A DNA stretch of 64,000 nucleotides from Candidatus Latescibacterota bacterium. GTDB taxonomy: Bacteria > Latescibacterota > UBA2968 > GCA-2709665. The stretch is taken from the NCBI GenBank assembly GCA_965237675.1, contig OZ250150.1:836339-900338 (forward strand), in the 5' to 3' direction. Within the stretch, counting starts at the first letter, position 1. Every line of letters starts with the position of its first letter. The notes below the pieces were generated by a model. It was not told the origin of the DNA and did no database searches. It saw nothing but the letters and a program-made list of their open reading frames with translations. The position numbers and the translations under genes are program-made. Positions 6,186 to 41,645 of the stretch are shown here, in pieces.

Positions 6186-7394
6186 TCATGTTTGGATCCA
6201 GTGCTCCACCGGTTTCGAGAGGAACTCGTCGACGGCAATGCCGTCGCCCCCTACAAGCAGGCTGCGGGTCGGGCGGAACGCCTCGGCGAAGGCGGCCATT
6301 CCCGGCGGGGTCCGGCGGGTTCGCTCGCTCTTGACTTCAATCGCAGTGACCGACCGTCCCGCGCGCACCACGAAATCCACCTCACGGTGGCGGTCGCGCC
6401 AGTAAAAGACCTCGCACGAGCCGCAGGCGGCGGCATTCACCAGATGGGCCCCAACCGCCGACTCAACCAGCCGTCCCCAGAAATCGTGGTCGGCTCGCGC
6501 CTGGGCCAGGGTGAGGCCCGATCCGGCGGTCATCAGGGCGGTGTTGAAGACTTGCAACTTCGGGCTGGAACTCCGACGCCGCACTGCCGCTCCGGCGTAC
6601 TTCTGCAATCCCCTCAGCATCCCCGCAACCGCCAGCAGATCGAGATAATGGGCCAGCGTCGTGGAGTTGCCGGCGTCGTGGAGTTGGCCCAGCATCTTCG
6701 TATAGGAGAGGATCTGACCGGAATAGGCACAGCCCAATTCGAACAAACGGCGCAACAGGGCCGGTTTGTCCACGCGTGAAAGCAGCAGGACGTCGCGGGA
6801 AATCGTGGTTTCGATGAGTGAGTCCCTGATGTAGCGGGACCACCGGGCCGGTTGCCGCGCCAGCGGCGCCGCGCCGGGATAGGCGCCGTAGAACAGGAAC
6901 TGCTCCAGCGACCAACCGAAAGCGGTCTGCATTTCCAGAAAGCTCCAGTGGGGCACGTGCAGCAGTTCGAAACGCCCGGCGAGGCTCTCAGTGAGTCCCC
7001 TACCGATCAAGAGTTGTGCAGAACCTGACAGCACCACCTTGAGCTGTCGCCGGCTCGTCGTATCCTCGTCCCACAGGCGCTTGACCACCTCCGACCAGTT
7101 CGGCGCCTTTTGCACCTCGTCCAGGATGAGAAGCGCACCATCGTCCCCCCCATCGCCAGCGAGGAGCCGCGCGGCGTCCCACTGCTGAGCAATCCATCCC
7201 GGGCCGCGCAACGTCGGCTCGTCGGCACTGGCGTAGCGATACGACAATCCGGACTTCTCCGCGGCCTGTGTGATCAGGGTCGTCTTGCCCACCTGCCTCG
7301 CCCCGGTGACGACCTGAATAAAACGGCGCGGCTCATACAGACGACGCAGCAGATCCGCAGCGTGAGGACGCGTATATGACAAATTACTCATCAT
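6186..7394 (-). CDS. AAA+ ATPase with DUF4143-type C-terminal domain
   Basis: 402-aa ORF. Walker A GARQVGKTTL, Walker B LLILDEVQ, C-terminal EVDFVV region as in AAA_14/DUF4143 ATPases. Confidence 0.75.
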   Translation of the reverse strand: MMSNLSYTRPHAADLLRRLYEPRRFIQVVTGARQVGKTTLITQAAEKSGLSYRYASADEPTLRGPGWIAQQWDAARLLAGDGGDDGALLILDEVQKAPNWSEVVKRLWDEDTTSRRQLKVVLSGSAQLLIGRGLTESLAGRFELLHVPHWSFLEMQTAFGWSLEQFLFYGAYPGAAPLARQPARWSRYIRDSLIETTISRDVLLLSRVDKPALLRRLFELGCAYSGQILSYTKMLGQLHDAGNSTTLAHYLDLLAVAGMLRGLQKYAGAAVRRRSSSPKLQVFNTALMTAGSGLTLAQARADHDFWGRLVESAVGAHLVNAAACGSCEVFYWRDRHREVDFVVRAGRSVTAIEVKSERTRRTPPGMAAFAEAFRPTRSLLVGGDGIAVDEFLSKPVEHWIQT

Positions 7395-7424
7395 AATGAG
7401 TAATAATACTCAATACAATGAGTA
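7384..7424. promoter_or_regulatory. Two palindromes sharing the half-site TACTCA(T)/(A)TGAGTA, overlapping the ATPase start codon
   Basis: TTACTCAT-CATA-ATGAGTAA at 7384-7403 and TACTCA-ATACAA-TGAGTA at 7407-7424, in an AT-rich spacer. Possible operator. Confidence 0.3.
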
Positions 7425-7511
7425 GATGGTAGTGATTTTTTTTGTCTTATTGGGATGATGGTGTGGATTGAGGGTTGTAGGAGGCCTTGGCCAAAGAAAG
7501 AGCTCCGAGCC

Positions 7512-8276
7512 TCATGCAGCCAGTTCTACTCTCGCCTCTTCACGCCGGCTCCACACTACCGGTCTGACGTCGTAGCTCCGTAGCGCGGCCATCACGGTCT
7601 GATCTACCTTTCGTTCCGAATCATTCAGCAATGCGTACACACGCGATCCCGGCGTGCGGACCTCCTTTGTGTCGATCCATGAGAGTACCATCGCTTGAGC
7701 GGTCGAGCGACTCGGTCGATTGACGGTCTGTAGAATGCGTTCAGGTTGCTGCCGGGACTTTGGAATTACGAAATGAAAGAGATGGTCGTACCCGGTCCTT
7801 CCGGTAAACTTCACCTTCGGGGTGTGGCGAATATCTTGAAGATCAAGCCACGCAACGACATCTTCGTAAAAGATGTTCGCCACCGTGGGCGCCGCCATGT
7901 AGAACATATCGTTGACGGCAAGCATCGCCTGCAAGAGATTGTGTTTGCGCATCGCGAAGTTTTCGGCCGATGCGAGGATCTGTAACTCGCGACCATTCTG
8001 GTCAACACCAAAACCATTTAACGTCATCTTGAGCAGATCATGACGTTTAGGGCTGTCAAGATTGCAACCACTCTGCGCAAGGTCCTCAATGGTATATCCA
8101 TCATCGGTTAAGACGAACCCACCGTTGGATTCCTTTGCATATATCTGCAAATAGTCGTTGTGTCGATCCAGATATGGCGTGGTGATCTCGACCCACTTGT
8201 CGATTTGGTTCAGGACTGTTTTGTCCTTGAGCCAGTCATAATAATTATCGATGAGAATCTGAATTTCTCTAATCAT
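7512..8276 (-). CDS. DUF1828 + DUF1829 domain protein
   Basis: [19 protein letters not shown]...[19 protein letters not shown]...[14 protein letters not shown] matches my recollection of DUF1828/DUF1829 proteins. ATG 8276 overlaps the upstream stop (ATGA at 8273-8276). Confidence 0.65.
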
Positions 8277-8722
8277 GTGAAAAGCTCCCGTAAGACATTT
8301 GGCGGTCGCGTGACGTTGCAGAACTGCAGGAATTCTTCGAACATCCCCCACACATCACCGACTGTACGGAACCCGTCCGACGGGACACCTACGGCCCACT
8401 TGTCGCCGAAGCCTTCTCGGTAAATGTGGAGGTGCGGTACGGGTATTTCCTCGCCATCCGGATTTCGATGTGGCGCACCACCTAGGTCCAGACGAACCAG
8501 CACGACGACTTGCCGCCCGCGAGTCTGCATTTTGACTTTTGAGAGATTTATGCTTGCTCGACTCAAGTCGAGCAGAAACTGCTCTCGTCTGTCGACCGAC
8601 TGAAGTGGGACGGCAACTGACTCGCCCCCCATAGGGAAGTTAGCCTGATCATCATTTACCCGATTTTTTTCCATTTCTATCAAAGCGTCTGCTTCTGCTT
8701 GAGTTAGGTCGAGGTCTGCCAT
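8273..8722 (-). CDS. Conserved hypothetical 149-aa protein with [27 protein letters not shown] motif
   Basis: Clean ORF, translationally coupled (ATGA) to the DUF1828/1829 gene. The His/Asn-rich motif could be a metal or nuclease site. No family confidently recognised. Confidence 0.6.
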
Positions 8723-8814
8723 TCGAATCTCAATTGTTGGTTGGATTTCAACTAATTTTCAGCACAATGACTGCGACATCCAAAAGCAGTCTTTGTCAGT
8801 GAACGCTGACCGGC

Positions 8815-9704
8815 TTACCCGGTGGACGAATCACCAACACTGTCCACTTCGACATCCCGAATTTCTTTCAACGTCCTCCCATCCGCGTCCTTCCAAGCCG
8901 TGAGGCCATTCATCGGGGCTCCCAAGAGGACGCTGGCCGCCTTTGATGGTGAACTGAAGGGGTAGTCTTGAACGACCCTGTACTTGGTGCCTGTATCTTC
9001 GAAAATCCCCTTCTTGAAGAGTATGTTGCGCAGGTCTGATATAGAGGAAGAGATTGAAGCGACCTGTTCCTTGACCGCTTCCGAATCGGTACATACGACG
9101 AAACCGCTTGACGCTTCATAACCGCGTGCCTCTATACCCTTTGCGTTCAGCAGCAGATCTCGGCTTGTTCCCGCCTCACCTCGCGGCTTATCAAAAAAGT
9201 TCACGCCTACAACCGGAAGACATAGTAACATGTCGGCTAAATACAACTCCGCGTCCACTTTGTCCGCGGGCGACAGCGACGGCGTTCGCGGGACATTGCC
9301 ATTCGTCAATTCGCAGCGTTTTGCATGGTCTGCGAGTTTCACCAGCCGCGCTTCGAGATACTTCGCGTGAGCTTTATTCAAGCTCTGGTCCTTGCTCAGG
9401 AACGCGATTACGTGCGTCCAGAAATCCTTATTCTTGGCGTGGTGCTCCAGCCTTCGTGACAACATTCTGCAACTGCCTCACCCACATAAGCCAGTGGTAG
9501 CTGCCCCAATTCGCCAGGTTCCCAGAGAACGTACACGCCAGTGTGATTGAGTACTTCCTTAGCGCGAACGTTGCTAAAAAGCGACCGGGGAAAAACGATA
9601 CCCTGCCCAGTCCAATTCGATTTCTCGACGACACGCAAGCCTTCCGGCTCGCCGGACGGCACGAAGATTCTAACCGAGAATCCCAATGGTTCAGTCACAA
9701 TCAC
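8815..9704 (-). pseudogene. GIY-YIG nuclease / DUF4357 gene disrupted by a frameshift near 9463-9470
   Basis: ORF 9408-9704 encodes ...GVYVLWEPGELGQLPLAYVGEA (GIY-YIG start), then goes out of frame. ORF 8815-9465 continues in another frame with LSRRLEHHAKNKDFW...KAHAKYLEARL and a C-terminal FSSPSKAASVLLGAPMNGLTAWK (DUF4357). Confidence 0.7.
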
Positions 9705-9812
9705 GCTCCAATTCAGGTAGTTTCGCGCTTGGAAGCTTTCTCTCGGTGGGATGCGGCATTCGGCAAGACATGAGCAAGATCGCGCTGCGTGTTTCGATGA
9801 AATGGCAATTAT

Positions 9813-11204
9813 TCACCTTTCGGAGGCGGCGTCGAGATCGCGAAGCAATTCCTCGACGTGAGTCACTAGGTCTTCATTGTCGCTTTTCCGCGCGAGATCC
9901 AAGGCGGTTTCCAAGTCGATCCGGCCCTCGCTCTTGAGACCCAACTCTACCTTTGAAACGCCTCTGTTGGCGTATGCTTCGCTGAAATCTGGGCGCAGGC
10001 GGATCGCCTCGTCAAAATTGCTGACGGCCTCTTCGTAGCGCCCCATTGTGAGCATTGTAGTGCCAAGATTGTAAATGGCTTTGACGTAATCCGCTTTCAG
10101 CCGGACGGCCTCGCTGAAATCGTCGATTGCCTCATCGAAATGCTTTAATGCAACCCTAGTAGTTCCCCGATTGTAGAACGCTTCTGCATAGTCCGGTTTC
10201 AGGCGGATGGCCTGATTGCAGTCAGCGATAGACTCATCGTAGAGTTCCATAGCAAGCCTGGCTGAAGCTCGGCCATTGTATGCTTCTGCAAAGTTCTGTT
10301 GCAAACGGATTGCTTCATCATAGTCCGCAATAGCGTCCTTGTACCGGTTGAATTGTTGCTTCGCGGTGCCTCGGTTGACAAAGGCTTCGGCTAAGTCCGG
10401 CTTCAAGTGGATTGCTCGGTCGTTGGCCGAGATGCTAGCCTTGGGGTCGACGTAAAGGAACAAATATCCAACAGAAAACCACGCTCTCGCAGCGAGAAAG
10501 TTATCGGCATCTTCCGCGACGTGAGCGATTGCACGCCACTTTTCGATAGCATCATTTCTCTTGCCCTGCCGTTGAAGAGAGACTGCCTGGGCAACAGCTT
10601 TGTCAAGCAGCGATGCGCTTGGGTCGTTCTGCACATTTCTGACAGCTTGTCCCACTTTGTCTGGATCATCGGCGACAAGCTTAGCGTTCATCCTCTGGAT
10701 AATCTCGTCCGATTTTTCGCGGATATTTGCAATCTCTCCCAAGTGACCTTCAGCGGCCTCCTCCAGTTCCGCAACCCGCTGAATGCTGTTCCTAGCCTCG
10801 GTCTCGATTTCCCTGAATCGCCTGAAGCCCATGATTCCGGCGATTGCTACTACGACACCGAAAAAAGTAAGTACAATGCCAATAACAACTAGCCACCAGT
10901 TGACGACTCTTGCACGGTCATCCAGAATTTCTCTACGGAGTTCGTTAAAACGACGTTGGATTTCGACATCGACTGTAGCCGGAATACTTATTTTTCGGGG
11001 TGGAACGATTTTTGTGTGGGTTCTCGAATCGGTGCTATCTGATACGACCACAAGACTCGCTGCAATTGTCGCTTTTCTCGACAGCCCTCGCCGGTCTTCA
11101 AGCAATGGTTCTGTCGTCTGCGCGAACGAAACCAATGGGGCGGACACAATCGTTGCTACAGCGATCCACCGTTGCCCAACCAAAGCTCCCAGCAACCGAA
11201 TCAT
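9813..11204 (-). CDS. Membrane-anchored tetratricopeptide-repeat protein
   Basis: 463 aa. N-terminal hydrophobic signal, TM helix WWLVVIGIVLTFFGVVVAIAGIMGF, then more than six TPR units (AEAFVNRGTAK, AEAYNGRASAR, AEAFYNRGTTR, VKAIYNLGTT, SEAYANRGVSK). Confidence 0.8.
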   Translation of the reverse strand: MIRLLGALVGQRWIAVATIVSAPLVSFAQTTEPLLEDRRGLSRKATIAASLVVVSDSTDSRTHTKIVPPRKISIPATVDVEIQRRFNELRREILDDRARVVNWWLVVIGIVLTFFGVVVAIAGIMGFRRFREIETEARNSIQRVAELEEAAEGHLGEIANIREKSDEIIQRMNAKLVADDPDKVGQAVRNVQNDPSASLLDKAVAQAVSLQRQGKRNDAIEKWRAIAHVAEDADNFLAARAWFSVGYLFLYVDPKASISANDRAIHLKPDLAEAFVNRGTAKQQFNRYKDAIADYDEAIRLQQNFAEAYNGRASARLAMELYDESIADCNQAIRLKPDYAEAFYNRGTTRVALKHFDEAIDDFSEAVRLKADYVKAIYNLGTTMLTMGRYEEAVSNFDEAIRLRPDFSEAYANRGVSKVELGLKSEGRIDLETALDLARKSDNEDLVTHVEELLRDLDAASER

Positions 11205-11520
11205 CCGGCGATCCTTATGGATGTTTGTATATGTTATTCCACATCTACTCGCGACTACTCGATAAAACCCGTTACGGCATTATTCCATTACCCGATTCGG
11301 ATATTACATCCGCGAGTTGCGTCAAGGTTCGCACATTGGCGTTAAAATCGTTCGCGGGAAACGTCGGACATACAACGACCGTCGCAACCTACGATCAATT
11401 ACGTGACGACATCGAAATAGTGTTTCTTCTGGGTGCAATACGGCTAAGATCGGTCTGTGGGTGTATTTCCGACCCTTTACCCCATGGTAATTTGGGCTTT
11501 GGTTGTGGATCGTATAGGCA

Positions 11521-13281
11521 TCACAATCCCCGGCCTCGGACAACTCTCGACACGAATCTTTCGAAGTTCTCAAGCGATTGCGTACACTCCGAGTGGGTGG
11601 CACCGAAAATGCCGCATTTTACGTACGCGGATGCATCCTCTAACTGAGATACAGAATTCGTGATTTCTGTCATTATACGTTGCATAGTCTGAGAGCGAAG
11701 GAAAAAGGCACCCGGTGGAAACCAATCAATTGAAAATTTCGTACGATAACCGAACCCCAGAGCAATCAGAATCTCAAACTTATCAAAGACGAATGTGTAT
11801 TTCTGTTCGTCCGTTATGAGATTGTTCAGAGGCTGTCGTAGTGCATCGTGGATCCACTCGCTCAAGGGTTCAACGCTCTCTTCCATCCCATCCAATAGGC
11901 GACCCCACGGAAACCTCGCGGTCACCTCTATATCAAATAGGGCAGTGATGACGTTCTCTGGCTGATATCCTGTAGGTCCATAATTGACAGGTGTACTCAA
12001 GATGCGATTTAAGAGGCGTAAATTTCCAGATTCGACCACACCAAGTCCGAATGCATAAAGGAGCAATCTTGCGGGGTATGTTTTTACGGGAAACCAGGAG
12101 GTCCCTTTACCAAGAGACGCTGCTGACAATCGCTGTATTGCCCTCTCCCACGCCGTGAGATTGTCGTCTTCACCCCAGTAACCGCCAACAGATGCAATCG
12201 CCAGAAGTGTTGAACACTTAGACTCGTACGCGCGAAGACGGGCCGTAACCAATCCTCGATTTGGCTGTTGCGTTACCAACTCCTTGGAGTCTTCTCTGGA
12301 AGTTGCATTTAGCACTTGATTCACTGCCACATCGACAAGGTCTACAAGCCGTATTCTGTGTTCGGGAGATGACAAGTAACGCTTCAAACTCCCGACGGCC
12401 ACTTCCGTAGAAAGCGGGTGCGGCTTTGAAAACTCCTCAATCGACTCGACGTTTTCGTGGATGTCATCGAAGAATGTCTCGGCGTCCTCAATACGAACGA
12501 GTTGGGCTTTTCGATGTTCTATGAGCCGCTGGGCTATCTCGCCTGCATTGCCCCTCACCGCCCAGTATGTCGTGAAACGTCGCGAGGACGCACGGAACAA
12601 TGCGTTTCGCAATGCGCCGTCCCATTCAGCCGACCACCCGCAGACGATCAGGCCGAACTCATCGAAGATCTGGTCCAAGAGTTTATGGTACTCGGGCGGA
12701 TACTCATCAAGTTCGGCCGGGGTATTTTTAATACGGGTATCGAGATAATCTCCATTTACCTTGAAGACGCAACACTGCGTGTGAATCAAGGGAAGTGCGC
12801 CCTTAACTTGATCTACAGAACTCAGGATAATCGGTACAACCCCTTCATCAATCAGGGCGGTTTCTACGAGACGGTCAAAATTAGTGGTGATAATGACCTT
12901 AATGAAACCTTGCGCGGCCAATGCGGCGATGGCGCGGTGGGCCGCGGTCGGCGCTTTCACGCCTTCCTCGCGCTCCTCGTCGGTTGGTTCAAAATAAGGC
13001 CGAAGCAACTGTTGCCGCTCGGCCTGGGTTGTGGCAAGTTCGTCGAGAAGATCGGAGTATGAGACCTCTTTCTCGAATTTCTCCAAATACCAGCGTTCTG
13101 GATTGGATTCGCACGTTTCGCCGCTGAGACTCGCCAGTTTACGAATCAAATCAAGCGTTATCTCCCAACCCGTGGAAATCTTTGCCGCCCGGGATACGCC
13201 TGAGCCCACAAGAACAGCGTAAACCCCAGGATTTGCTTGGATAGAAAATGCCAGTGAGTGGACAGGATCGATTGACCTCAT
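11521..13281 (-). CDS. SIR2-family (SIR2_2-like) protein with ~300-aa uncharacterised C-terminal region
   Basis: VLVGSGVSRAAKISTGWEITLDLIRKLA, TTNFDRLVETA, FKVNGDYLDTRIKNT and GLIVCGWSAEWD match the SIR2_2 pattern. ATG 13281 overlaps the upstream stop (ATGA 13278-13281). The track start at 13347 lies inside the upstream gene. Confidence 0.75.
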   Translation of the reverse strand: MRSIDPVHSLAFSIQANPGVYAVLVGSGVSRAAKISTGWEITLDLIRKLASLSGETCESNPERWYLEKFEKEVSYSDLLDELATTQAERQQLLRPYFEPTDEEREEGVKAPTAAHRAIAALAAQGFIKVIITTNFDRLVETALIDEGVVPIILSSVDQVKGALPLIHTQCCVFKVNGDYLDTRIKNTPAELDEYPPEYHKLLDQIFDEFGLIVCGWSAEWDGALRNALFRASSRRFTTYWAVRGNAGEIAQRLIEHRKAQLVRIEDAETFFDDIHENVESIEEFSKPHPLSTEVAVGSLKRYLSSPEHRIRLVDLVDVAVNQVLNATSREDSKELVTQQPNRGLVTARLRAYESKCSTLLAIASVGGYWGEDDNLTAWERAIQRLSAASLGKGTSWFPVKTYPARLLLYAFGLGVVESGNLRLLNRILSTPVNYGPTGYQPENVITALFDIEVTARFPWGRLLDGMEESVEPLSEWIHDALRQPLNNLITDEQKYTFVFDKFEILIALGFGYRTKFSIDWFPPGAFFLRSQTMQRIMTEITNSVSQLEDASAYVKCGIFGATHSECTQSLENFERFVSRVVRGRGL

Positions 13282-14414
13282 TCCCCCTCTTCCTGCATAT
13301 CCTTTTGCGGAATGACGGCAACAACGCGTGGATTCAACAAGTGCCAACGCTGACCGTGGCGATCTAAGTCGCCTTCTACCACTATTGGCGCCTTCTCCTT
13401 GTGAGCCTGGATCGCTCGTGCGTAATCGGACTGACTCAAAACGGCAACCACTGACTTCATTTGCTCGTCAATATATGCTCGCAGAGTGATTGTACCCAAA
13501 TCCTGCTCGTAGCGTATCAGCCTGTGGACAGGGCCAGTGAGCCGGACGTTCGGCCGCGGTTCACGATCACGGAATAACCGCGCGGCCTGACGGAAAATCG
13601 GAGCGTCACCCTTGGCAAAGCGAACCACCTCCCGTACCGTCTTCATCGGATACGTGCGGGCCCAGGTCAAACTGACGTCCAGTGCTTCGAAGGGTTCGAT
13701 CAACTTCACGAGCGCTTCGCACAGATTGGCGCTTACACCATCGTCCACGGCCAGTAGGAAAGCGTCGACGTTTCCACCGATTATTCCTTCCGTCGCATGC
13801 CGGGCGGCTCGCAGCGCGGAAACCAGACGCCTTGTCATCTTGCGCTCAATCGGGTCTTCGTTGTGCTCCGAATCCTGAATGAAGGACTGTTGTATGGTTG
13901 GCGGCACTACAGGGGTCAGCATGGTAACAACAAAGCTGCCCTGCTCGGTCTGTCCCAAGCGTAAGTTTCGCACATAATCCATGGCCTGAATGTTGGCGCC
14001 CGGGCGATAAACCGCCCTTGGATTATGCAGAGAACAGGCTGCTGCCAGGATCATATCGTGTGCGCCGCACACAAGGTCGATCCCATCGCTTACGGACACG
14101 GCGCCGTCGACGCCTTCTGCTGCCCGCACGCGAATGACATCTCGGTCGGCGGTAACCAGGTCGCGGTAGAGAGAAAGTTCGTCGGTACCGGCAACATCGG
14201 CAAAGATATCGATGAGTTGAGATACAACGTTGGCATAATCACCCAATCGTTGGGTTCGCGGCAAGATGATTTCCGGTAACCCGTCCGACACATAGACGTC
14301 TGAAGAGTCACCGTAGTTGTCCGTCCGTGTCCAGCCCGTTGCGCGGGCATAGGCTGATAGGGCCGCAGGCGAAATCTCGCTCAAGGGCCCCTTGTCCCGA
14401 ATGCTGACCCTCAT
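13278..14414 (-). CDS. Hypothetical 378-aa protein (SIR2-operon gene 3), no recognisable domain
   Basis: Long clean ORF with ATGA overlaps at both ends (14411-14414 and 13278-13281). Confidence 0.7.
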   Translation of the reverse strand: MRVSIRDKGPLSEISPAALSAYARATGWTRTDNYGDSSDVYVSDGLPEIILPRTQRLGDYANVVSQLIDIFADVAGTDELSLYRDLVTADRDVIRVRAAEGVDGAVSVSDGIDLVCGAHDMILAAACSLHNPRAVYRPGANIQAMDYVRNLRLGQTEQGSFVVTMLTPVVPPTIQQSFIQDSEHNEDPIERKMTRRLVSALRAARHATEGIIGGNVDAFLLAVDDGVSANLCEALVKLIEPFEALDVSLTWARTYPMKTVREVVRFAKGDAPIFRQAARLFRDREPRPNVRLTGPVHRLIRYEQDLGTITLRAYIDEQMKSVVAVLSQSDYARAIQAHKEKAPIVVEGDLDRHGQRWHLLNPRVVAVIPQKDMQEEGE

Positions 14415-14911
14415 CGGATTCTCCCTTGTTGTGACTGTTCCATGAGCGAACGAAGATTATCCACGTCAAACACGTTGCTCCTCGGTATTCGGACCGTAAC
14501 GGACGACTGGTTGTCCGTCTCCGCAAAACCGTTCAGGTTCAACCAATATGCTCGGCGCCTCAGTACAAGCTCATCCTCGGTGATCGTAACCCATTGCTCC
14601 GTTTCTTTCGGTAGGTCTAGCACCACGAGCAACCTCGGCGTCTGTGTTTCGATACGCAGCTGGTCGTAATTCCTGCGCTTCAGTGGAAAGTGAAAGCACC
14701 CACCATCTCGCGTGGTCAGATTGACTGTCGCCTTTAACTGCAATTCGAGCGCGGGTCGCATCGCCCCACCCGCTTGAATCCGAAGATCGATGCTGTCGCG
14801 ATCCAGATCTGGGCGTGCCGTGACATAACCTGCCCGCGCCGCTACTGCCTTTGCATAGACGAGAGACAACGCTTCTTCCTGGTCGGAATCTGTCATCAGC
14901 GCATCGGTCAT
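14411..14911 (-). CDS. DUF4365-like (PD-(D/E)xK restriction-endonuclease-fold) protein
   Basis: ATG 14911 is preceded by GGAGGGAG. DRDSIDLRIQAG...LELQLKAT resembles the D..GID...E.Q.K core of DUF4365. Confidence 0.55.
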   Translation of the reverse strand: MTDALMTDSDQEEALSLVYAKAVAARAGYVTARPDLDRDSIDLRIQAGGAMRPALELQLKATVNLTTRDGGCFHFPLKRRNYDQLRIETQTPRLLVVLDLPKETEQWVTITEDELVLRRRAYWLNLNGFAETDNQSSVTVRIPRSNVFDVDNLRSLMEQSQQGRIR

Positions 14912-14924
14912 GCAACTCCCTCCA

Positions 14925-15290
14925 TTAGATTCCACCGACACCTACCAACGAGGCGACGTCCTCACCTTCGAACCACTCCATTTTACCATTGCAACCCATA
15001 GCGTAAGGCAGTCGAAACTCGGAATCAGGTAATACCACGTTGGTGTTATGCGGATTCATATATAGACAGGCGGATGCATTCCTTAGATTCCACACGTCAA
15101 CCTTGGAGAACATCAATATAGCATCAATTCGGCTGTGTCGACCGCAAGACCAGAAACCATTCTGCTTACGGTCTAGCCGCGGGGGTGAGTCAGGGTGGTC
15201 ACTGGAAAAGACGAGTTGCTCTTTGCCGAACAGCACCTCCATATCATCCTGGTGGCCGTTGTAGAACATATTGCGGACGTTCACTGCCAA
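14925..15290 (-). CDS. Hypothetical ~114-121-aa protein (SIR2-operon gene 1)
   Basis: The reading frame opens at 15320 after a TAG (15321-15323). Candidate starts are TTG 15290 or ATG 15269. Its TAA (14925-14927) sits 13 nt upstream of the next start codon, next to that gene's RBS. Function unknown. Confidence 0.45.
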   Translation of the reverse strand: MAVNVRNMFYNGHQDDMEVLFGKEQLVFSSDHPDSPPRLDRKQNGFWSCGRHSRIDAILMFSKVDVWNLRNASACLYMNPHNTNVVLPDSEFRLPYAMGCNGKMEWFEGEDVASLVGVGGI

Positions 15291-15454
15291 TACGACAGGC
15301 GCTCCATGCGTGCGATATTTCTACGCTTTTTACATTAACGCGTTCCGTAAAGGGGCCGAACAATCTGAAAATGCACCGAAACGATGCCCTACGGCAAGTT
15401 GACGCTCTCAATCATCCTTTCGTTCCTCCGATGAAATCGGGGAATGCCAGGCTT

Positions 15455-16810
15455 CTATGTATCAATCGCCTTGGCCGCGATAAAATTAAAATGCCTGGTG
15501 AACAATTCACGCGAGTGGATCAAGAATTGTCTTGGTATTCCTAAACATTCAAATATGTGAATACCAATCTCGATTGCGTCACCTATTGCATCACCAACTT
15601 GATCCATAGTTAAAGAGTCTGACTGCGGAACACTGCGTTCTGGTAGCACCGCAAAGGTATCGAGTGATGTACCACTCGGCACCAGTACGTCTGTATCCTG
15701 CACTACGGGAAGACCGTATTCTTCGATATGTTCCTGGTACGCTGGCAAATCTACAAAAGGCACGGTTCGCCAGATATTCTCGAGGTGAGCCTTGACATAA
15801 AACGGCCCCTTTACCTTCGCTTGCCAAACAAGGCGACGATGTCGCCTGATCAATGACATCAAAAGAATCAGTACTAAGTTTAAGTCCAATACTCGACTAC
15901 TATCCAGTCCATGTTCACGTACCTTTGAAGTGAAGGACTCATATATTGAGGCTTCCGGTTGGTGCGCATAGGAAAAACCTGATGCAGCCGACTGTACGGG
16001 AAATGTTATAAACGAATGGCAGTGTCTGGAGAATTCCCACGTAAGGATGCGGCTGTATGGGTCGTTGTTTTTTGCCTGCCTTGCGACATATCCTCCAGAC
16101 TTGGAGTAGATATTGTCGAATGGTAAGTTCGCCTCCCCCATCAGCGCGCTGAATTTCGAGATTCCTTCTGGATACCAATGCCCCATCGTCTCGTACGGAT
16201 CCGACATGATGCTAAAGTGAATATAGCATTGGTCTTGCTCTCCTTTGGATACGGTCGGAATTCGGGTTATTCGATCAGATAATCGAGAACGTGCGGTCTT
16301 GCTACGCTCAATAAGCAGATCCAACCTCGACCGATCTGTCTCTGGTTTTGGATCCGAGGAATCAGCGATCCTTCGATAGATGCGCCCATCGTTGTGCACG
16401 TAGGGACAATCTGCTCCTTGAGGGATTTGTACAACGACTATAGATCTATCGGCCTCCAATCCAAGGGATTCGACTGGCCCGCTGAAGACCCGGCTGGAGT
16501 AGAATACATCAGGGCTGATAATGTCCTTCGACGCGTTTCGCAGGGCTTCAAGAAAACTCGCAACTTCCGCGTTTGGAATACCAGGAAAATTCTCTGCAAC
16601 GTGCAATTCTCGGTCCTCGGAGACCCCGACGAATAACCAACCTCCAAGCTGATTCGCGAATGATGCAAGGCTCTTGGCGATATCACGAGGCTTTATCGAC
16701 TCTGACTTATATTCAACGTACCAGCCTTCATGTACGTGCCTAAGACCTGCCAGATCGTCGCCTGAAAGTTCAAAAAGCTCTTTCTCAAAGGGTCGGTAAC
16801 GATGGTTCAT
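15455..16810 (-). CDS. AlbA_2 (Schlafen-like, divergent AAA) domain protein
   Basis: WYVEYKSESIKPRDIAKSLASFANQLGGWLFVGVSED is the AlbA_2 signature. The remaining ~300 aa are uncharacterised. Confidence 0.7.
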   Translation of the reverse strand: MNHRYRPFEKELFELSGDDLAGLRHVHEGWYVEYKSESIKPRDIAKSLASFANQLGGWLFVGVSEDRELHVAENFPGIPNAEVASFLEALRNASKDIISPDVFYSSRVFSGPVESLGLEADRSIVVVQIPQGADCPYVHNDGRIYRRIADSSDPKPETDRSRLDLLIERSKTARSRLSDRITRIPTVSKGEQDQCYIHFSIMSDPYETMGHWYPEGISKFSALMGEANLPFDNIYSKSGGYVARQAKNNDPYSRILTWEFSRHCHSFITFPVQSAASGFSYAHQPEASIYESFTSKVREHGLDSSRVLDLNLVLILLMSLIRRHRRLVWQAKVKGPFYVKAHLENIWRTVPFVDLPAYQEHIEEYGLPVVQDTDVLVPSGTSLDTFAVLPERSVPQSDSLTMDQVGDAIGDAIEIGIHIFECLGIPRQFLIHSRELFTRHFNFIAAKAIDT

Positions 16811-16951
16811 AGTAATAATTCCAATTGGTTGAAAAATCGTCCAATTTCAGATTCTCACAACACGAACAATTACGATGCACACTAAACTGTTATGGATGTC
16901 TGGATGCAATCAATGCCTGATATCGTCTTCACTACCGCTTGAGCCTCCACC

Positions 16952-19750
16952 CTATTCTTGCCTACCGCTACTCACCCGCCGCCGCCGTTTCGGTTTCGCC
17001 TTTGCGGCAAGCGGCGCAACCATCTTCTCGTAGAGACCGAGCAGGTGTTCGACCCGCTCGCGCTCGGTTGTGAAGCCGCTACGTCGGTACAGCCTATCGA
17101 CGGCGCGGTCCAGGGCCTGATGTACTTTGCGAAGGTCGGGTGGCATGAAGTCAGGGTCGTATAGGTTGGCCAACGTTTCGCCTGGATGGTTGGCGCGAGC
17201 GGCGAGAACGGCTTCCGCGGGGGGCGCAAGGCGTTCCAGGCGTTCGGCTGGGACGGGAGGCAGGGGGAAGGTATTGTACACAATGCCGATCCCGTACGAA
17301 AAGTCACTCTTGAGCCGCCCGCCGATGTTCCGGACCCACGCCATGTGAATTGTAGATGTAAGGAGTCCAAACTGCCAAAGGGCGGCGTTGAGTAGTACGC
17401 GTACTTTATTGCTCGGAATCACCGGTGGTTCCAGCCACGCGATTGGGATATAGTCACGCCGTTCGGAACTGACCTCCGGTACGACCAGGTACGGGTCCGA
17501 AGGAATGACGTTGACGTGGTAGAGCTTTGGCATCATTGACAGTGCCTGGGTCGGCTTGCTCTTGCTTGCCAGCCTATATTCGCGGACGGCCGCTATGCGC
17601 TCCCGTACTTTCGGCAGCGTCTTGAGCACGTGCGGCGGCGCTTCCGACAGATGCAATATCCAACGTTCTCCGCCCTGCAAAAACTCGCGGCTTCCCACGA
17701 ATGGTCGCAGATACGGTTCGGCACCCGGTTCTTCGCGAAGAAAAGTAGCCCGTTCGTCGACCTTAAAAATGTAATGGCCGCCGTCTATGGGCTTGGAGCC
17801 TATTATCAGCTTCGGCAGCCCATTGATGGGTAGATGTGCCTCCCGTACGACAACTCCAGCGTCTGTCAATCCGCTCGCGTCGAAGAGGTAGGGTGAGAGG
17901 GCGGTGGGTTGGCTCTGTTGTGGATCGCCGTTGACCGTTTCGTAGGAAAACAGACGCTTCTGTCGTGGAGCATCGTCCCGTTTGGCCAATCCGATAATGA
18001 CCACGTGAACGTGCGCCATACCGCGCGCGTCCGAACCCCATGCGAACGTGCGGTGCGCAAAGGCGATTTCCAGTTTGTGGCGTTCGAACAAAATCGGCCA
18101 GAGTTGCGCCACCTGTTCGCCCTGCGTGATGGAATTGGTCGCGACAAAGCCGATTCGCGTAGTGCTATTCTGTACGTATTCCCCAGCTTTGATGAACCAC
18201 GCGGTAACGTAGTCGAGCGTGCCGCCGCTCTTTCCCAATGCGGCGATGCCGCGCACCTGTTCGCGCTGTTCGGGCGATTGAAACTTCGCGCCCACGAAAG
18301 GCGGATTACCCAGCACGTACGAACATTCCTCCGGCCGCAGAAGTTCGGACCATTCAAACTCAAGCGCGTCACCATGCCGGATGTGCGGCGATTTCTCCAG
18401 CGGAATGCGGACGTACGTCTGTCCGAACTCCAAGCTCAGCCGGTTATTCATGATATGGTCCATCATCCACAACGCGACCTCGGCGATGTGCGCCGGAAAC
18501 TCCCCCAACTCAATCCCGTAGAACTGGTCCACGTCGACCACCGAAAGCAACTTTGCAAAGGCATCAACCTGGCCCTTCGGACGAATCTCCTTGAGAACCT
18601 GGATCTCCAACTCTCGTAATTCACGGTAGGCAATGATGAGGAAATTCCCGCAGCCGCAGGCTGGATCGAAGAAATTCAGGTCACCGAGCCGCTGCTGAAA
18701 GGAGATCAGTTCGGGAATGCGGCGCGTGTCGCGACGCGCCTTCAGGCGTTGGAACTCCTCGCGCAGTTCGTCGAGGAATAGCGGCTCGATTACCTTGAGG
18801 ATGTTCTGCTCGGTGGTGTAATGCGCGCCCTGTCGGCGGCGTTCGTCCTTCTCCATTACGGACTGGAATAGCGAGCCGAAGATGGCCGGAGAGATATCGG
18901 ACCAATTGAAATGGCAAGCGTCGATGAGCCGCTGGCGCATTCTGGAATCGAACGATGGTATGGACAGCGTGTCTCGGAAGAGGTCTCCGTTGACATTGGG
19001 GAAGCGGTCGAGGTCTTCGTCGAGCGTTTTGGCGCGTCGGTCTTCGGGTGTGTTGAGCACCTGGAACAATTGCGCCAGCCACCCGCCCAGGTCTGAGCCA
19101 TCTTCGTTCGTCCTATTTTCCAACAGGTCAAGGAAGATGTCACGCGGCTCGAAGATGCCGGTGTCGTCGGCAAAGAAGCAGAAGACGATCCGGACGAGGA
19201 ATTGCTCCAGGTCGTGGCCGGTGTAGCCGGAAGCCGCCAGCGCGTCGTGGAGAAGGCCCACACGCTCGGCCGCCTGAATGTTTACCGGGTCTTGATCCTT
19301 GAAGGTGCGCTTCTGGAGGCCGAGAATAAAGCCGAACTTTTCAATGTTATCAGGTAGATCGGCCAGGGCGAAACGCACCTCCTCGCGCTCGTCCCTGTCG
19401 ATCAATTCAAAGGTCTGGAAGTCGCACTGCAACTGGTAGCGCGGTCGCTCGTGCTCCTGCAGGGCATCGAAATAAGCGTCTGCCTGGTGCCGCGCCTTTT
19501 CCAGATTTACTCCCGCGCTCTTCTGCTCGACGAGCAATACCCCAGGCCAAAACAGATCGATGAATCCGTGGGAATCGTCCAGCCGTTTGACCTGCTCTTC
19601 GTAGCGGGCGACCGTGCGACGTTTTACGCCGAATATCTCGAAGAATTCATTGTAAAAGCTCTGCGTCTCGCCCTTCTCGTAGCCCGAGTCCTTCCACTCT
19701 CGTGCAAAATTGGCGGCGCGGGTGCGGATTTCATTCCATGATAGTCGCAT
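16952..19750 (-). CDS. MmeI-like Type IIL (IIG) restriction-modification enzyme (fused endonuclease-methyltransferase-specificity)
   Basis: 932 aa. The N-terminus MRLSWNEIRTRAANFAREW...FIDLFWPGVLLVEQKS closely parallels the MmeI D-x(n)-ExK nuclease motif. The N6-adenine methylase motif IV is present as VLGNPPFVG. Confidence 0.85.
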   Translation of the reverse strand: MRLSWNEIRTRAANFAREWKDSGYEKGETQSFYNEFFEIFGVKRRTVARYEEQVKRLDDSHGFIDLFWPGVLLVEQKSAGVNLEKARHQADAYFDALQEHERPRYQLQCDFQTFELIDRDEREEVRFALADLPDNIEKFGFILGLQKRTFKDQDPVNIQAAERVGLLHDALAASGYTGHDLEQFLVRIVFCFFADDTGIFEPRDIFLDLLENRTNEDGSDLGGWLAQLFQVLNTPEDRRAKTLDEDLDRFPNVNGDLFRDTLSIPSFDSRMRQRLIDACHFNWSDISPAIFGSLFQSVMEKDERRRQGAHYTTEQNILKVIEPLFLDELREEFQRLKARRDTRRIPELISFQQRLGDLNFFDPACGCGNFLIIAYRELRELEIQVLKEIRPKGQVDAFAKLLSVVDVDQFYGIELGEFPAHIAEVALWMMDHIMNNRLSLEFGQTYVRIPLEKSPHIRHGDALEFEWSELLRPEECSYVLGNPPFVGAKFQSPEQREQVRGIAALGKSGGTLDYVTAWFIKAGEYVQNSTTRIGFVATNSITQGEQVAQLWPILFERHKLEIAFAHRTFAWGSDARGMAHVHVVIIGLAKRDDAPRQKRLFSYETVNGDPQQSQPTALSPYLFDASGLTDAGVVVREAHLPINGLPKLIIGSKPIDGGHYIFKVDERATFLREEPGAEPYLRPFVGSREFLQGGERWILHLSEAPPHVLKTLPKVRERIAAVREYRLASKSKPTQALSMMPKLYHVNVIPSDPYLVVPEVSSERRDYIPIAWLEPPVIPSNKVRVLLNAALWQFGLLTSTIHMAWVRNIGGRLKSDFSYGIGIVYNTFPLPPVPAERLERLAPPAEAVLAARANHPGETLANLYDPDFMPPDLRKVHQALDRAVDRLYRRSGFTTERERVEHLLGLYEKMVAPLAAKAKPKRRRRVSSGRQE

Positions 19751-19817
19751 GTAGTGCCTTCAATTGCATCACGTGGCGGGATTGCCCACAATGCATTTTA
19801 TAGTTCTTCAATCGCAC

Positions 19818-20576
19818 TCAGGAACGGTTTAATATACACCGCAGATAACTGAGTGACGATATTGCTTTGAGACTGTTGATTTCCGTTCCGAATGTTACTG
19901 CCTCTCCGTGTAGGACTTGATGCCGATTTAGTCCTTCGAATGACTCGCTCCTTTCATGTTGATTCATCCAAAGAGGGCTCGAAATCGAGAGAGGGGTCAA
20001 CATCGCCTCCAAGAAACCACCGGGGGCCTCGTTGCGTTTATATTTACAGGCGACAGATTTTCTTTCGTAACTTTTAAACAAACTCTTTGAGGATGCCTCC
20101 CAAAATATCCCGTCTGACTGCGCCAGTAAAACCGGTATCGCGAGGTTGTACTTTCGTTCTCGATGTGCTTGGAACGCATCACGGAAGAGATGGCTTCTCT
20201 CCGGATAGGACTGAGAGAGTTCCAACTCTATGGCATCTACTCGCTCCCGTAGGAAGTCGATGGCAATTTTCTCGGCGCGATCACGGTCAGCGCTCACAGT
20301 GCGCAGGATTTCTTGCAGGTTATCCAAGGGCAATCCCAAGTCGGGGAACCATCCAATCTTGGCAAGTTTAATCAAAGCCTTTCTGTTAATTTCCGGTAGT
20401 TCTTGCAAATACTTCAAGAACAGCACGGCATACGGCGCCAATGCCTGGACTGTTTGTCTGATCGTCTCTATATCTTTTTCTAGCGATGGAATCGACGCAA
20501 AAAGTAACTCGGCAAAATGCTCTGCAAGAGTGCGATTCCGATTGTGTTGACTATCACTTTCCTGCGCCATCGTCAA
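19818..20576 (-). CDS. Hypothetical protein with C-terminal HEPN-like Rx4H motif
   Basis: 252 aa, 67 nt upstream of the MmeI-like gene. FEGLNRHQVLHGEAV fits the HEPN R-x4-H signature. Confidence 0.5.
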   Translation of the reverse strand: MTMAQESDSQHNRNRTLAEHFAELLFASIPSLEKDIETIRQTVQALAPYAVLFLKYLQELPEINRKALIKLAKIGWFPDLGLPLDNLQEILRTVSADRDRAEKIAIDFLRERVDAIELELSQSYPERSHLFRDAFQAHRERKYNLAIPVLLAQSDGIFWEASSKSLFKSYERKSVACKYKRNEAPGGFLEAMLTPLSISSPLWMNQHERSESFEGLNRHQVLHGEAVTFGTEINSLKAISSLSYLRCILNRS

Positions 20577-20600
20577 TCTTCCTCGGGGTATGTTGCCTGT

Positions 20601-20951
20601 CTATATAATGAGAGCTCCCGTTAACGAGCAACGTGATCTATTGCCGACCAATCCTGATCTTCCGCATCTCTCTGACAAACAGGATATCCTTGAATACCCT
20701 TTCGCTATCTTTATCCAATTGGAGTTATCCCTCGATCTCACGTCGCCGTAATTAATCTTCGGTCTCCAAATATACGATCCTGAAATCTGTTGGATCCCCA
20801 CGCCTACCAACGAAACACGGCCAGCCATCGACATGACCATAATTGCCACGTAGGGCGAGCAATTTCGAGCATCGTGACGCGTTTCGCCGTCGTAATCGCA
20901 GCCGATTCGTCCGGGGCAAAGGATCGTTGGGCTATCCCGTCGGGAAATCAT
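20601..20951 (-). CDS. Possible 116-aa ORF coupled to the DUF4276 gene (uncertain)
   Basis: ATG 20951 overlaps the DUF4276 stop (ATGA 20948-20951). The Arg/Cys/Ser-rich composition is not convincing as a protein. It would fill an otherwise 370-bp gap. Confidence 0.25.
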   Translation of the reverse strand: MISRRDSPTILCPGRIGCDYDGETRHDARNCSPYVAIMVMSMAGRVSLVGVGIQQISGSYIWRPKINYGDVRSRDNSNWIKIAKGYSRISCLSERCGRSGLVGNRSRCSLTGALII

Positions 20952-21577
20952 TTTCCCTCTGGTGTCCAACTCTCCCTAAGCTTTTGGAGTGTCTCGACAA
21001 ATCGTCTTGCGTGGCGCGACGCATTCGTGACTTTCGCAGAGTCTATTGTAGCCAGGATTTCAAAACTGTGACGCCCTTTGTCATAGCGGCCTTTCGAGGT
21101 ACGACGCGTAGCCTGGCGAATTCTGTTGAGTACATCATTCTTGGCAACCTGCTCTATCTGTTGATTCGACGGGAGCGCGGTTTCCTGAAAGCCCTGGCCG
21201 TAGTATTCCTCAAGGGCCGTACGGTCCGCCAGAAACCAGGATTCCATGACCTCTACCATGAGGTGGCACTGGTCGTCGGTTGCGCCAGCTGGGCGATCCC
21301 GGCCATCACGGCCCTTGAGGTGTTGCCACGGCCCCGTTTCTCCTACCGCCCTTTCAGCGTCCAACAGAAGCATCGGGCCTTCATTTTTGGCGGCCGTATT
21401 ACGTTGTCTCGTCCTAAAGTCCTCGTACGCGTTCCTGCGACTGCCCGAGGCTACAATTTCGGGCATTGTTCCTTTCAACCCCGATTTTTCAATGAATTTC
21501 CGAAAACCCCTGCGGCACGCCCTTTTGAGCGCCCTGCTACTGCCTCCTCCTTCGACATATAGCTTGATCTTCACCAC
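20948..21577 (-). CDS. DUF4276 family protein
   Basis: VKIKLYVEGGGSSRALKRACRRGFRKFIEKSGL...MPEIVASGSRRNAYEDF matches my recollection of the DUF4276 N-terminus. Its GTG start overlaps the ATPase stop (GGTGGTGA). Confidence 0.6.
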   Translation of the reverse strand: MVKIKLYVEGGGSSRALKRACRRGFRKFIEKSGLKGTMPEIVASGSRRNAYEDFRTRQRNTAAKNEGPMLLLDAERAVGETGPWQHLKGRDGRDRPAGATDDQCHLMVEVMESWFLADRTALEEYYGQGFQETALPSNQQIEQVAKNDVLNRIRQATRRTSKGRYDKGRHSFEILATIDSAKVTNASRHARRFVETLQKLRESWTPEGK

Positions 21578-22764
21578 CGATTCCCTCCTATTTCCCCTTT
21601 CACCCAGAGCTCACCAAGTCGATATTTATCGAGCCATTTCTCAAGTTCCTCGCCGTCCAGCCGGCGAAGTTGGCTCGCTCCGTTGGATTTTTCGCAGACA
21701 ATTACTGCCTCCGGAGTATCCGTGAGCGCGTCAATGAGAATGTCAGAGTGTGTTGTGACGAAGATTTGGCTGCGGGACGACGCCTCGACTAGAAGCTCCG
21801 CCAACTCCGGGATCACGTCAGGGTGCAGTCCGATCTCAGGCTCCTCAATGCATACAACAGGTGGCGGATTGGGATTGCAGAGCACCGAAAGCAGGCAAAG
21901 ATAGTGTAGAGTACCATCAGAAAGCCGGGTGGCCGGCACGGAATGATCCAAGCCTTCTTCATGGAAGGACAACTGCACCGTGCTACCCTGTATCGTCACG
22001 AGAATATCCTCTATCGTCGGATGAAAGGCCTTCAAGCGTTCCACAATCTTGCGTTTTACGGGAGGTTGGTTCAGTAAATTGCCAAGAACCAAGCCGATAT
22101 TTGAAGCGTCCTCCAACAGGCTGTCCTGCGGGAGGTCGGCCTGCTGCGGAAGGCGGGATGGTGCAGAGCGACCGAGGTTCCACTCACGATAGAAACGCAT
22201 ACGTTCGAAAGCCTCAGCCAGATGGGTTAATTCCGGATAGGAGTCCGGATCGCGACGCTGCGCGAGAATGGACTGGTCGGGAATTACTTCATCCCGTGTG
22301 AGGCGTCGGTCTGGACGAGGCTCCTGCGTGAAGACGTTGAGCACTGGCTGACCATCTCGGTATCGGTAGAAGATATATGGCTCCTCGTTTCCTGGAGTCG
22401 GCTTCTCATTCTCGATCGCCTCTTCCAAGAGTTCAAACCGTGCACCTGTCTCGGTGAACGACAGCCGATACCTGAGCGGCTGCTTCTCCGGGTATTCGAC
22501 TGTTACGTCTACGGTTGCCGTGCCGAGTCGAGTGGCTCCTTTCCAAAGCCAATCGTGAACGCCTCCTCCTACCCGAATCGGTGCCTGCAAATCCCTGGTC
22601 GGCGCTGCTGACAGGATCGATAACACTTCAATCAAGTTTGATTTTCCAGACGCGTTAGGACCAATGAAGACGTTTAATGGTTCCAGATGAAACTCCTCGT
22701 CCCCGGATCCGTAGGACAATATGTTGTCGAGACGGATTGTTCGAATCAACCTTTTGCCTTTCAT
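21571..22764 (-). CDS. ABC/AAA_21-type ATPase
   Basis: 397 aa. Walker A GPNASGKSNL, Walker B/D-loop VVCIEEPEIGLHPD, and HSD in FVTTHSDILIDAL. Confidence 0.8.
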   Translation of the reverse strand: MKGKRLIRTIRLDNILSYGSGDEEFHLEPLNVFIGPNASGKSNLIEVLSILSAAPTRDLQAPIRVGGGVHDWLWKGATRLGTATVDVTVEYPEKQPLRYRLSFTETGARFELLEEAIENEKPTPGNEEPYIFYRYRDGQPVLNVFTQEPRPDRRLTRDEVIPDQSILAQRRDPDSYPELTHLAEAFERMRFYREWNLGRSAPSRLPQQADLPQDSLLEDASNIGLVLGNLLNQPPVKRKIVERLKAFHPTIEDILVTIQGSTVQLSFHEEGLDHSVPATRLSDGTLHYLCLLSVLCNPNPPPVVCIEEPEIGLHPDVIPELAELLVEASSRSQIFVTTHSDILIDALTDTPEAVIVCEKSNGASQLRRLDGEELEKWLDKYRLGELWVKGEIGGNRW

Positions 22765-22849
22765 AGCGCACTCCCCTCATTTCCCATTTCGGCTCCAACT
22801 GCAAATGGAATTTCTTTCTTTCGTCAGGATCTCCACTGAATCGGCTAAA

Positions 22850-23053
22850 TCATCCGTGATTCAATTGCAATCCCTGATTTCCGGACTGATTCATTAAATT
22901 GCCCCGGCGATCTCTTCCACTTTCTACAACCCCCTCTACAGACCCCACAAAATCGACGGTTGTCGGACAGCCATTGCCATCAAAGCATTTTGTCGGCCAC
23001 TTTTCATCGTTATTGACCGACAACTGACGTTGTGGGACAAGAGTGTCCGTCAA
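22850..23053 (-). CDS. Possible small ORF translationally coupled to fic (uncertain)
   Basis: A TTG start overlaps the fic stop (TTTGA). The first ~28 codons (VPQ..L...N.EKWPTK.FDGN) are conserved, with synonymous changes, in the second repeat copy at 24500-24583. Confidence 0.3.
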   Translation of the reverse strand: MTDTLVPQRQLSVNNDEKWPTKCFDGNGCPTTVDFVGSVEGVVESGRDRRGNLMNQSGNQGLQLNHG

Positions 23054-41625: not shown

Positions 41626-41645
41626 TACCCACAACCAATTAAACA

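Follow-up and report, generated by a model that had tools for sequence, protein, structure and literature searches.

A Latescibacterota defence island that joins members of the candidate anti-phage families PDC-M02 and PDC-S65

Introduction

Anti-phage proteins with a SIR2 domain have been described in a few arrangements that are defined by their partners or their size: Thoeris with the TIR protein ThsB, SIR2-HerA with a HerA helicase, SPARSA with a short prokaryotic Argonaute (pAgo), and DSR1 and DSR2, in which one polypeptide of ~1000 aa has a SIR2 domain at its N-terminus and a helical region at its C-terminus. In SPARDA the short pAgo works with the nuclease DREN, which belongs to the DUF4365 family. 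Predicted systems have also been collected from genes embedded in BREX, DISARM and type I restriction-modification (R-M) operons, giving 145 candidates (Payne et al. 2024, bioRxiv 10.1101/2024.01.29.577857). Two of these are PDC-M02, a two-family cassette listed as CAS_00021 with 894 instances in supplementary file 8 of that study, and PDC-S65, a single-gene phage defence candidate. In a literature search by both names, PDC-M02 was mentioned only in the source preprint and one supplementary file, and no other paper turned up for either name. Here we describe a block of minus-strand genes, encoding a DUF4365 protein, a 378-aa protein and a 586-aa SIR2 protein, in a stretch of 64,000 nt from a Candidatus Latescibacterota bacterium (contig OZ250150.1, positions 836,339 to 900,338, assembly GCA_965237675.1). 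This whole stretch is called the window, and the coordinates of the locus are positions in it.

An earlier note on this DNA had described these genes, together with a small open reading frame (ORF) in front of them, as a four-gene operon ending in a SIR2 protein that fits no known SIR2 defence architecture. We think that the region is probably a stack of two predicted anti-phage cassettes that can be separated from each other. They would be transcribed together and coupled in translation within a mosaic defence island, behind a dead gene fragment.

Results and discussion

The three intact genes match two catalogued families

When the proteins were compared with the PADLOC models, the DUF4365 protein matched PDC-M02A (1.2e-58, full length), the 378-aa protein matched PDC-M02B (1e-122, full length) and the SIR2 protein matched PDC-S65 (PDLC05061; 3.1e-205, residues 3-579 on profile positions 15-588 of 592). 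The first two are called M02A and M02B below. The pair corresponds to PDC-M02 as defined, with A adjacent to and upstream of B on one strand, matches to both hidden Markov models (HMMs) and an overlapping stop/start; what differs here is the SIR2 gene joined at the 3' end of the operon. The SIR2 protein matches PDC-S65 over its full length and has the same architecture of ~585 aa, an N-terminal SIR2 domain followed by a helical C-terminus of ~300 aa. However, whereas the family occurs alone or embedded in type I R-M operons, this copy lies outside an R-M operon, is coupled to PDC-M02 and carries Asn at the position of the catalytic His. By these matches the locus is a member of two catalogued, predicted candidate families and not a novel four-gene SIR2 system, and the two cassettes are stacked and translationally coupled in the defence island of one lineage, behind a pseudogene.

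The claim that the SIR2 protein fits no known architecture thus holds in one part and fails in another: it belongs to none of Thoeris, SIR2-HerA, SPARSA and DSR1/2, but the genes are assigned to systems that PADLOC already names, PDC-M02 (A and B) and PDC-S65. The absence of TIR ThsB, HerA, short pAgo and the >1000-aa DSR format was borne out throughout by the Pfam, PADLOC, Foldseek and profile searches. No neighbouring gene had a TIR match, and the SIR2 protein has no SLOG domain and a helical C-terminus; the ThsA HMMs match it weakly and partially (~2e-4, residues 110-181). There was no HerA or DUF87 match among the genes scanned from 4.2 to 28.2 kb. Neither a pAgo ORF nor an APAZ domain was found at the locus; the PADLOC pAgo/Aga models match only the SIR2 domain (residues 109-298), and the Foldseek alignment to 8y80_E covers ~312 columns. 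No DSR model was among the PADLOC matches of the SIR2 protein, and its Foldseek similarity to DSR2 (E 2e-6, template modelling (TM) score ~0.3, root-mean-square deviation 18-20 Å) is essentially limited to the SIR2 domain. As for SPARDA, the 166 aa of M02A are all DUF4365, and M02B has no Ago-like fold.

A gene fragment precedes M02A

The minus-strand ORFs, both ATGA overlaps and the 13-nt spacing with its GGAGG were all present as previously described (Table 1). These 13 nt separate the stop of the 121-aa ORF from the ATG of M02A and contain the Shine-Dalgarno-like GGAGGGAG. This ATG is most likely the start of M02A, since the resulting protein has the length of its homologues. A scan for promoters and terminators gave counts at or below the shuffled expectation.

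The proposed first gene of the operon did not hold up. Residues 206-386 of the 386-aa protein of a related locus (L005) align by tblastn to 15470-14928 of the window with 53% identity, and this alignment contains four in-frame stops within its upstream 60 codons. The relic lacks the first ~205 codons, because the preceding Schlafen/AlbA_2 gene already ends at 15455. Since the relic is both 5'-truncated and interrupted by the four stops, the 121-aa ORF, its final open stretch, is not a gene, and the unit is three intact genes preceded by a dead gene fragment. L005, L161 and L164 carry an intact copy (373-389 aa across all intact copies) in front of M02A; others adjoin a SIR2 gene without M02A or M02B in L001 and L030. 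The intact protein matches PADLOC PD-T7-5 weakly, and a Pfam scan of it found no domain. The 451-aa Schlafen/AlbA_2 gene, which has no PADLOC match, occupies the site where the N-terminal part of the 386-aa gene would be expected.

M02A is a predicted bare nuclease domain and M02B ends in a predicted OB fold

The suspected DUF4365-like PD-(D/E)xK protein was confirmed as such: M02A consists of a DUF4365 domain only (Pfam, 1.1e-25). Its residues D42, Q58 and K60 are invariant among 17 diverse homologues. Although a single-sequence search of M02A against the PDB returned nothing, its profile gave a marginal match to EcoRV (E 0.1), in which E45, D74 and D90-x-K92 of EcoRV were aligned; the core residues of M02A fall on D74 and D90-x-K92, and E45 lies further upstream. 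M02A therefore keeps a D..QxK core, which we take to be the Mrr-type variant of PD-(D/E)xK, and is a predicted nuclease. It shares this core with the Mrr-type (type IV) restriction nucleases but has no DNA-binding domain of its own, so that recognition would come from M02B.

For M02B, the impression that it has no recognisable motif was correct as far as Pfam is concerned, yet the PADLOC PDC-M02B model matches it. Neither Pfam nor NCBIfam gave a match, and searches of the PDB with the single sequence or a profile found no sequence match. In the AlphaFold2 model (predicted local distance difference test (pLDDT) 77), residues ~285-367 resemble the OB folds of SSB, the RecG wedge, the anticodon-binding domain of LysRS and RPA in Foldseek searches against the PDB; the E-values range from 4e-3 to 6e-2 and the matches are mutually consistent, suggesting that M02B ends in an OB fold. 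The sole full-length structural match was gp37 of Leptospira phage LE1 (E 2.7e-20). The possibility that M02B is a cryptic Ago or APAZ protein was rejected, as Foldseek found only OB folds, in the last ~90 residues, and Ago and APAZ structures are in the PDB.

The SIR2 protein combines a conserved SIR2 domain with an exchangeable C-terminal half

The SIR2 fold suggested earlier for the 586-aa protein is supported by Pfam (SIR2_2, 1e-7), by a PDB profile search, in which residues 22-255 only matched the SPARSA SIR2-APAZ protein at 1.9e-13, and by Foldseek, whose best PDB matches were SPARSA SIR2-APAZ, DSR2, ThsA and KomC. In the AlphaFold2 model (mean pLDDT 73.5), a Rossmann-type SIR2 domain reaches to about residue 280, and an all-helical domain follows from ~290. 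That the C-terminal ~300 aa are unassigned also stood: the profile searches cover the SIR2 domain only, and residues ~290-586 gave no profile match and no recognisable relative.

Conservation within PDC-S65 is much stronger in the SIR2 domain than in the C-terminal half. Residues 1-290 of the window's SIR2 are 78-85% identical to the M02B-linked clade, with the same MRSIDP start. In residues 291-586 the identity to this clade is only 32-46%, against 51-63% to another group that includes copies embedded in type I R-M operons. The neighbour-joining tree places the SIR2 of the window, as well as P0002, the relative closest to it, outside the main M02B-linked clade, because the protein is a mosaic of an N-terminal domain from the linked clade and an exchanged C-terminal half. 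The tree alone hinted that the linked SIR2s are polyphyletic, with repeated association; we rejected this on the domain-wise comparison, which fits one origin and a C-terminal swap. Judging from these identities, the association has a single origin in this lineage, and the exchange of the C-terminal half came later. This fast-evolving and apparently recombinant half has a pattern that fits a specificity or sensor domain.

By analogy, the SIR2 protein would in function most resemble a shortened DSR-type single-protein sensor-effector. Like DSR1/2, it is a single polypeptide that has its SIR2 domain at the N-terminus and a helical region at the C-terminus, and a sensor that gates NAD+ consumption is likely the common logic, but it has only about half their length, matches no DSR HMM and in this copy lacks the catalytic His. 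The nearest solved relative of its SIR2 domain is the Geobacter SPARSA protein GsSir2-APAZ, and M02A belongs to the family of SPARDA's DREN; the locus differs from both systems in having no pAgo gene or APAZ domain, and M02B has no MID/PIWI or APAZ fold.

His and Asn alternate at the catalytic position

The K-V-N-G reading of the catalytic motif, and the altered or lost NADase chemistry proposed from it, fared differently. In an alignment with the Geobacter SPARSA Sir2 protein (GsSir2), KVNGDY faces KIHGDF; N176 stands at the position of H186 and N134 at that of the catalytic Asn, N142. This confirms that the catalytic His reads Asn; the codon of N176 in the window is AAT. A test for the catalytic His (K-x-H-G) failed with the window's SIR2, and the Asn of TTNFD was present. 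In a family alignment of 191 PDC-S65 proteins (P0002-P0120 and L001-L080), N134 of TTNFD is invariant, and position 176 is H in 137/191 and N in 54/191 (28% N). The NAD-pocket residues of GSG, TTNFD and CGWS are invariant as well. At least 15 switches of state are seen on the neighbour-joining tree, and the N and H types occur in pairs as similar as P0057/P0068 (95.0% identity) and P0065/P0060 (93.0%). N-type copies are also found outside an M02 context, including in a type I R-M operon (L067). N176 is not a peculiarity of this operon, and the free alternation of H and N at the site, also in copies unrelated to M02, weakens the case for altered chemistry. A restriction of N176 to SIR2s linked with M02 was also considered and rejected, as N-type copies occur in the R-M operon of L067 and in other contexts and the SIR2 beside M02A and M02B in L082 is H-type.

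The polymorphism is unexpected, because mutation of the equivalent residue of KomC, H146A, abolishes defence (PMC13454610). An H146N variant of KomC has been deposited in the PDB. The alternation argues that the residue may not be an obligatory general base, or else that attenuated variants are tolerated.

The two cassettes mostly occur apart

Co-occurrence of the gene families in other genomes, which the four-gene proposal had predicted, was mostly not seen. A profile search with one genome per species gave 573 relatives of the SIR2 protein, and among the best 80 of these M02B lay immediately upstream of SIR2 in 4/80 loci, L002, L003 and L005 from Latescibacterota and L007 from Gemmatimonadota; the other 76 had no M02B within 8 kb. 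In 31/80 loci SIR2 lies among HsdM, HsdS and HsdR, typically between hsdS and hsdR, and one such R-M-embedded SIR2 (L166) is 69% identical to the window's. In 17 loci without M02B, a preceding ORF on the same strand (mostly HsdS) has its stop at the start of SIR2 or overlapping it, with the exact 4-nt overlap in, for example, L023, L029, L032, L038 and L070. Because HsdS and other upstream genes overlap SIR2 in the same way, the ATGA junction appears to be a habit of the SIR2 cassette and not a mark of partnership.

The reverse survey covered 80 metagenome loci found with the M02B profile. M02A was directly upstream of M02B in most of them, and no conserved third gene followed M02B in the surveyed loci. 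No close same-strand gene lay downstream in 43 of the 66 assessable loci, and in ~7 HsdR came next; the downstream genes were otherwise heterogeneous (HsdR, a gene whose N-terminal sequence suggests, by eye, a DUF1156-type methylase, spurious ORFs). Only L082/L083 carries a PDC-S65 SIR2, giving 1/80 loci; there the order, inside a type I R-M operon, is HsdS-SIR2-(170 aa)-M02A-M02B-HsdR, reversed relative to the window. Taken over both surveys, ~95% of SIR2 loci have no M02B and at least 97% of M02B loci have no SIR2.

The cassette also occurs without SIR2 in LE1, a temperate Leptospira phage, where an MmeI-family gene (gp39), a DUF4365 gene (gp38) and the M02B-like gp37 stand in a row (L171, NC_048892.1 38735-43418). 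The MmeI-M02A-M02B neighbourhood of the window's lineage thus recurs in a phage of a distant host; MmeI was not found next to M02B in 31 other long M02B loci.

The coupled block is ancestral to one lineage of islands

The MmeI end of the island and its DUF1828/AAA_14/ACPS end recur in related contigs, which differ in between. The intact block is kept in L164/L165, whose SIR2 is 85% identical, and in L161. L006 has SIR2 without M02A and M02B, L007 and L169 have M02B-SIR2 without M02A, and in L162, L163, L167 and L170 what is left beside M02B is 27-61 codons of M02A, 21-96 codons of SIR2, or both. In L168 an insertion sequence (DDE_Tnp_1, 3166-5001) lies inside M02A and SIR2 is frameshifted. By this pattern the M02A-M02B-SIR2 block is ancestral to a lineage of syntenic islands beside an MmeI-type enzyme and is being eroded in different ways; the islands hold the intact block, SIR2 alone, or M02B with remnants. 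In the decayed loci that hold M02B the gene itself was always intact, which might be taken as a sign of selection as for an antitoxin; we rejected this as evidence, since the loci had been found via an intact M02B. In L007 a probable Vsr-type gene, recognised by eye, stands in the place of M02A.

Two cassettes or one system

In the model that we prefer, in which the nuclease activity, the NAD+ consumption and the triggers are all predictions, PDC-M02 would be a two-subunit restriction-like or abortive nuclease: M02A supplies a bare Mrr-like nuclease domain, and the OB fold of M02B is most likely a nucleic-acid binder that guides or licenses this domain. PDC-S65 would be a single-protein, DSR-like "mini" sirtuin whose SIR2 domain binds and probably consumes NAD+ after the helical C-terminal domain has recognised a phage component, leading to abortive infection. 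This model draws on the family membership, folds, conserved residues, overlaps, separate occurrence and R-M embedding described above. Further support comes from the exchange of the C-terminal half of SIR2, in which the M02 genes had no part. That the two cassettes are also functionally independent we rate only somewhat better than even.

Several observations weigh against separability. The three-gene block with exact ATGA junctions is present in at least six sequenced loci (the window, L164/L165, L161, L002, L003 and L005, with M02B-SIR2 only in L007 and L169) and inferred in ~8 more contigs, at SIR2 identities of 59-85%, and the linkage outlasted the replacement of the SIR2 C-terminal half. 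L082 is a second, independent juxtaposition of SIR2 with M02A and M02B. Every related island examined that has an intact M02A also has an intact SIR2 (6/6, in a sample ascertained via intact M02B or SIR2). Moreover, short-pAgo systems use the same two domains, DUF4365 and this SIR2 subtype, as their effectors, a hint of shared logic: the SIR2 domain is closest to pAgo-associated SIR2-APAZ, and DUF4365 is the nuclease domain of SPARDA. These points would fit an integrated three-component system, in which M02B is an OB-fold sensor that detects phage nucleic acid and controls both the DUF4365 nuclease and SIR2, as short pAgo does with DREN in SPARDA or with SIR2 in SPARSA. We nevertheless regard such a system as unlikely, though it deserves to be kept in mind, because SIR2 and M02B are each found without the other in the great majority of loci, members of the SIR2 family usually stand singly between hsdS and hsdR, and M02B has no Ago or APAZ fold by Foldseek, with such structures in the PDB. 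The linkage is apparently of one origin in one lineage, the linked copies sharing the N-terminal domain and the MRSIDP start, and in L082 the genes stand in another order, with one more gene between them. Distinctly doubtful is the stronger proposal that M02A-M02B-SIR2 is a genuine three-part module in which a non-Argonaute OB-fold sensor drives the effector families of short pAgo and the His-less SIR2 acts through non-canonical NAD+ chemistry or binding.

The Asn at position 176 bears on two further explanations. The segment might be decaying and largely non-functional, with a SIR2 that is catalytically dead through the change of His to Asn and a block that is kept only by recent ancestry. 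The block is indeed flanked by pseudogenes, the 386-aa relic and a split PDC-S14; sister islands have deletions, a frameshift or the insertion sequence in M02A or SIR2; and the loss of defence in KomC H146A, together with the H146N variant in the PDB, points the same way. However, the three ORFs are intact, full-length and correctly coupled, and the N-type SIR2s of the family are full-length and well conserved, including singletons in type I R-M operons. The repeated origin of N, also within the pairs of 93-95% identity, argues that it is tolerated and not inactivating, and we hold decay to be quite improbable. Alternatively, an N-type SIR2 may have changed its chemistry, for example to ADP-ribosyl transfer or to NAD+/nucleotide sensing without hydrolysis, as its general-base His is absent while the GSG, TTNFD and CGWS pocket residues are invariant. 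Class M sirtuins without the catalytic His act as ADP-ribosyltransferases. This is very improbable in our judgement, since H and N are swapped between near-identical proteins in identical contexts, which a change of reaction type is unlikely to tolerate.

Two separable cassettes open no new class of defence system, as both halves are already PADLOC candidates. They do provide working models, a nuclease-only DUF4365 protein with an OB-fold partner for PDC-M02 and a "mini-DSR" sirtuin with a swappable helical sensor domain for PDC-S65, both predicted. The points of most interest are that swappable C-terminal domain and the H/N polymorphism at the catalytic site: that a widespread family of defence sirtuins switches between Asn and the supposedly essential catalytic His is a puzzle, which bears on what defence enzymes that deplete NAD require of the sirtuin mechanism. 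Whether stacked cassettes cooperate has a natural test in the lineage that joins these two.

The surrounding island

The defence-island setting proposed for the block agrees with the Pfam and PADLOC scans of the neighbouring genes. From 6186 to 24213 on the minus strand, 18 kb form a chain of PADLOC entries. Read 5' to 3' on this strand, the order is SoFic, HEC-01A/B, a 252-aa unknown, the MmeI-type IIG enzyme, SLFN/AlbA_2, the relic, M02A, M02B, SIR2, a TPR protein, the split PDC-S14, PDC-M24B, PDC-S01 and housekeeping genes.

Table 1 Features of the coupled block and its neighbours in the window
Feature	Position	Strand	Remarks
SIR2 gene (PDC-S65)	13281-11521	-	586 aa from ATG; longest ORF from TTG 13347
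ATGA stop/start overlap M02B/SIR2	13281-13278	-	read from sequence
378-aa gene (PDC-M02B)	14414-13278	-	378 aa
ATGA stop/start overlap M02A/M02B	14414-14411	-	read from sequence
DUF4365 gene (PDC-M02A)	14911-14411	-	166 aa from ATG; upstream GTG 14941 also open
Shine-Dalgarno-like GGAGGGAG	14923-14916	-	read from sequence; 4 nt before M02A ATG 14911
121-aa ORF	14925-15290	-	final open stretch of pseudogene relic; TAA ends 14925
Pseudogene relic of ~380-390-aa gene	15470..14928	-	tblastn of 386-aa L005 protein
Schlafen/AlbA_2 gene, 451 aa	15455-16810	-	
MmeI-type IIG enzyme	16952-19750	-	PADLOC
HEC-01A/B	20948-22764	-	PADLOC
SoFic	23050-24213	-	PADLOC
TPR-repeat protein, 463 aa	9813-11204	-	directly downstream of SIR2 after 317-nt gap; PADLOC TPR matches weak
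PDC-S14 (DUF4357), split	8815-9704	-	two overlapping ORFs, 98 aa + 216 aa; consecutive parts of one PADLOC model
PDC-M24B	7512-8351	-	PADLOC
PDC-S01	6186-7394	-	PADLOC
Second Schlafen/AlbA_2 gene	24930-26672	-	with HATPase_c_4

The split PDC-S14 is probably a frameshifted pseudogene; intact copies of 292 aa are found in L163 and L169. The TPR gene was absent from the syntenic islands examined. A DUF6978 gene lies right before PDC-M24B in the related islands, and none was seen in the window. Among these islands, L167 holds a separate SIR2_2 and DUF87 (SIR2-HerA-like) gene pair at 1-2648, and in L168 there is only a DUF87/HerA_C gene, at the edge of the locus. Beyond the chain of PADLOC entries in the window, the second Schlafen/AlbA_2 gene matches the pAgo-associated PADLOC models weakly. 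Farther along, the GC content falls to 0.45-0.48 at ~39000-48000, compared with 0.55-0.65 elsewhere, with a strongly positive GC skew, and this segment may have been acquired horizontally.

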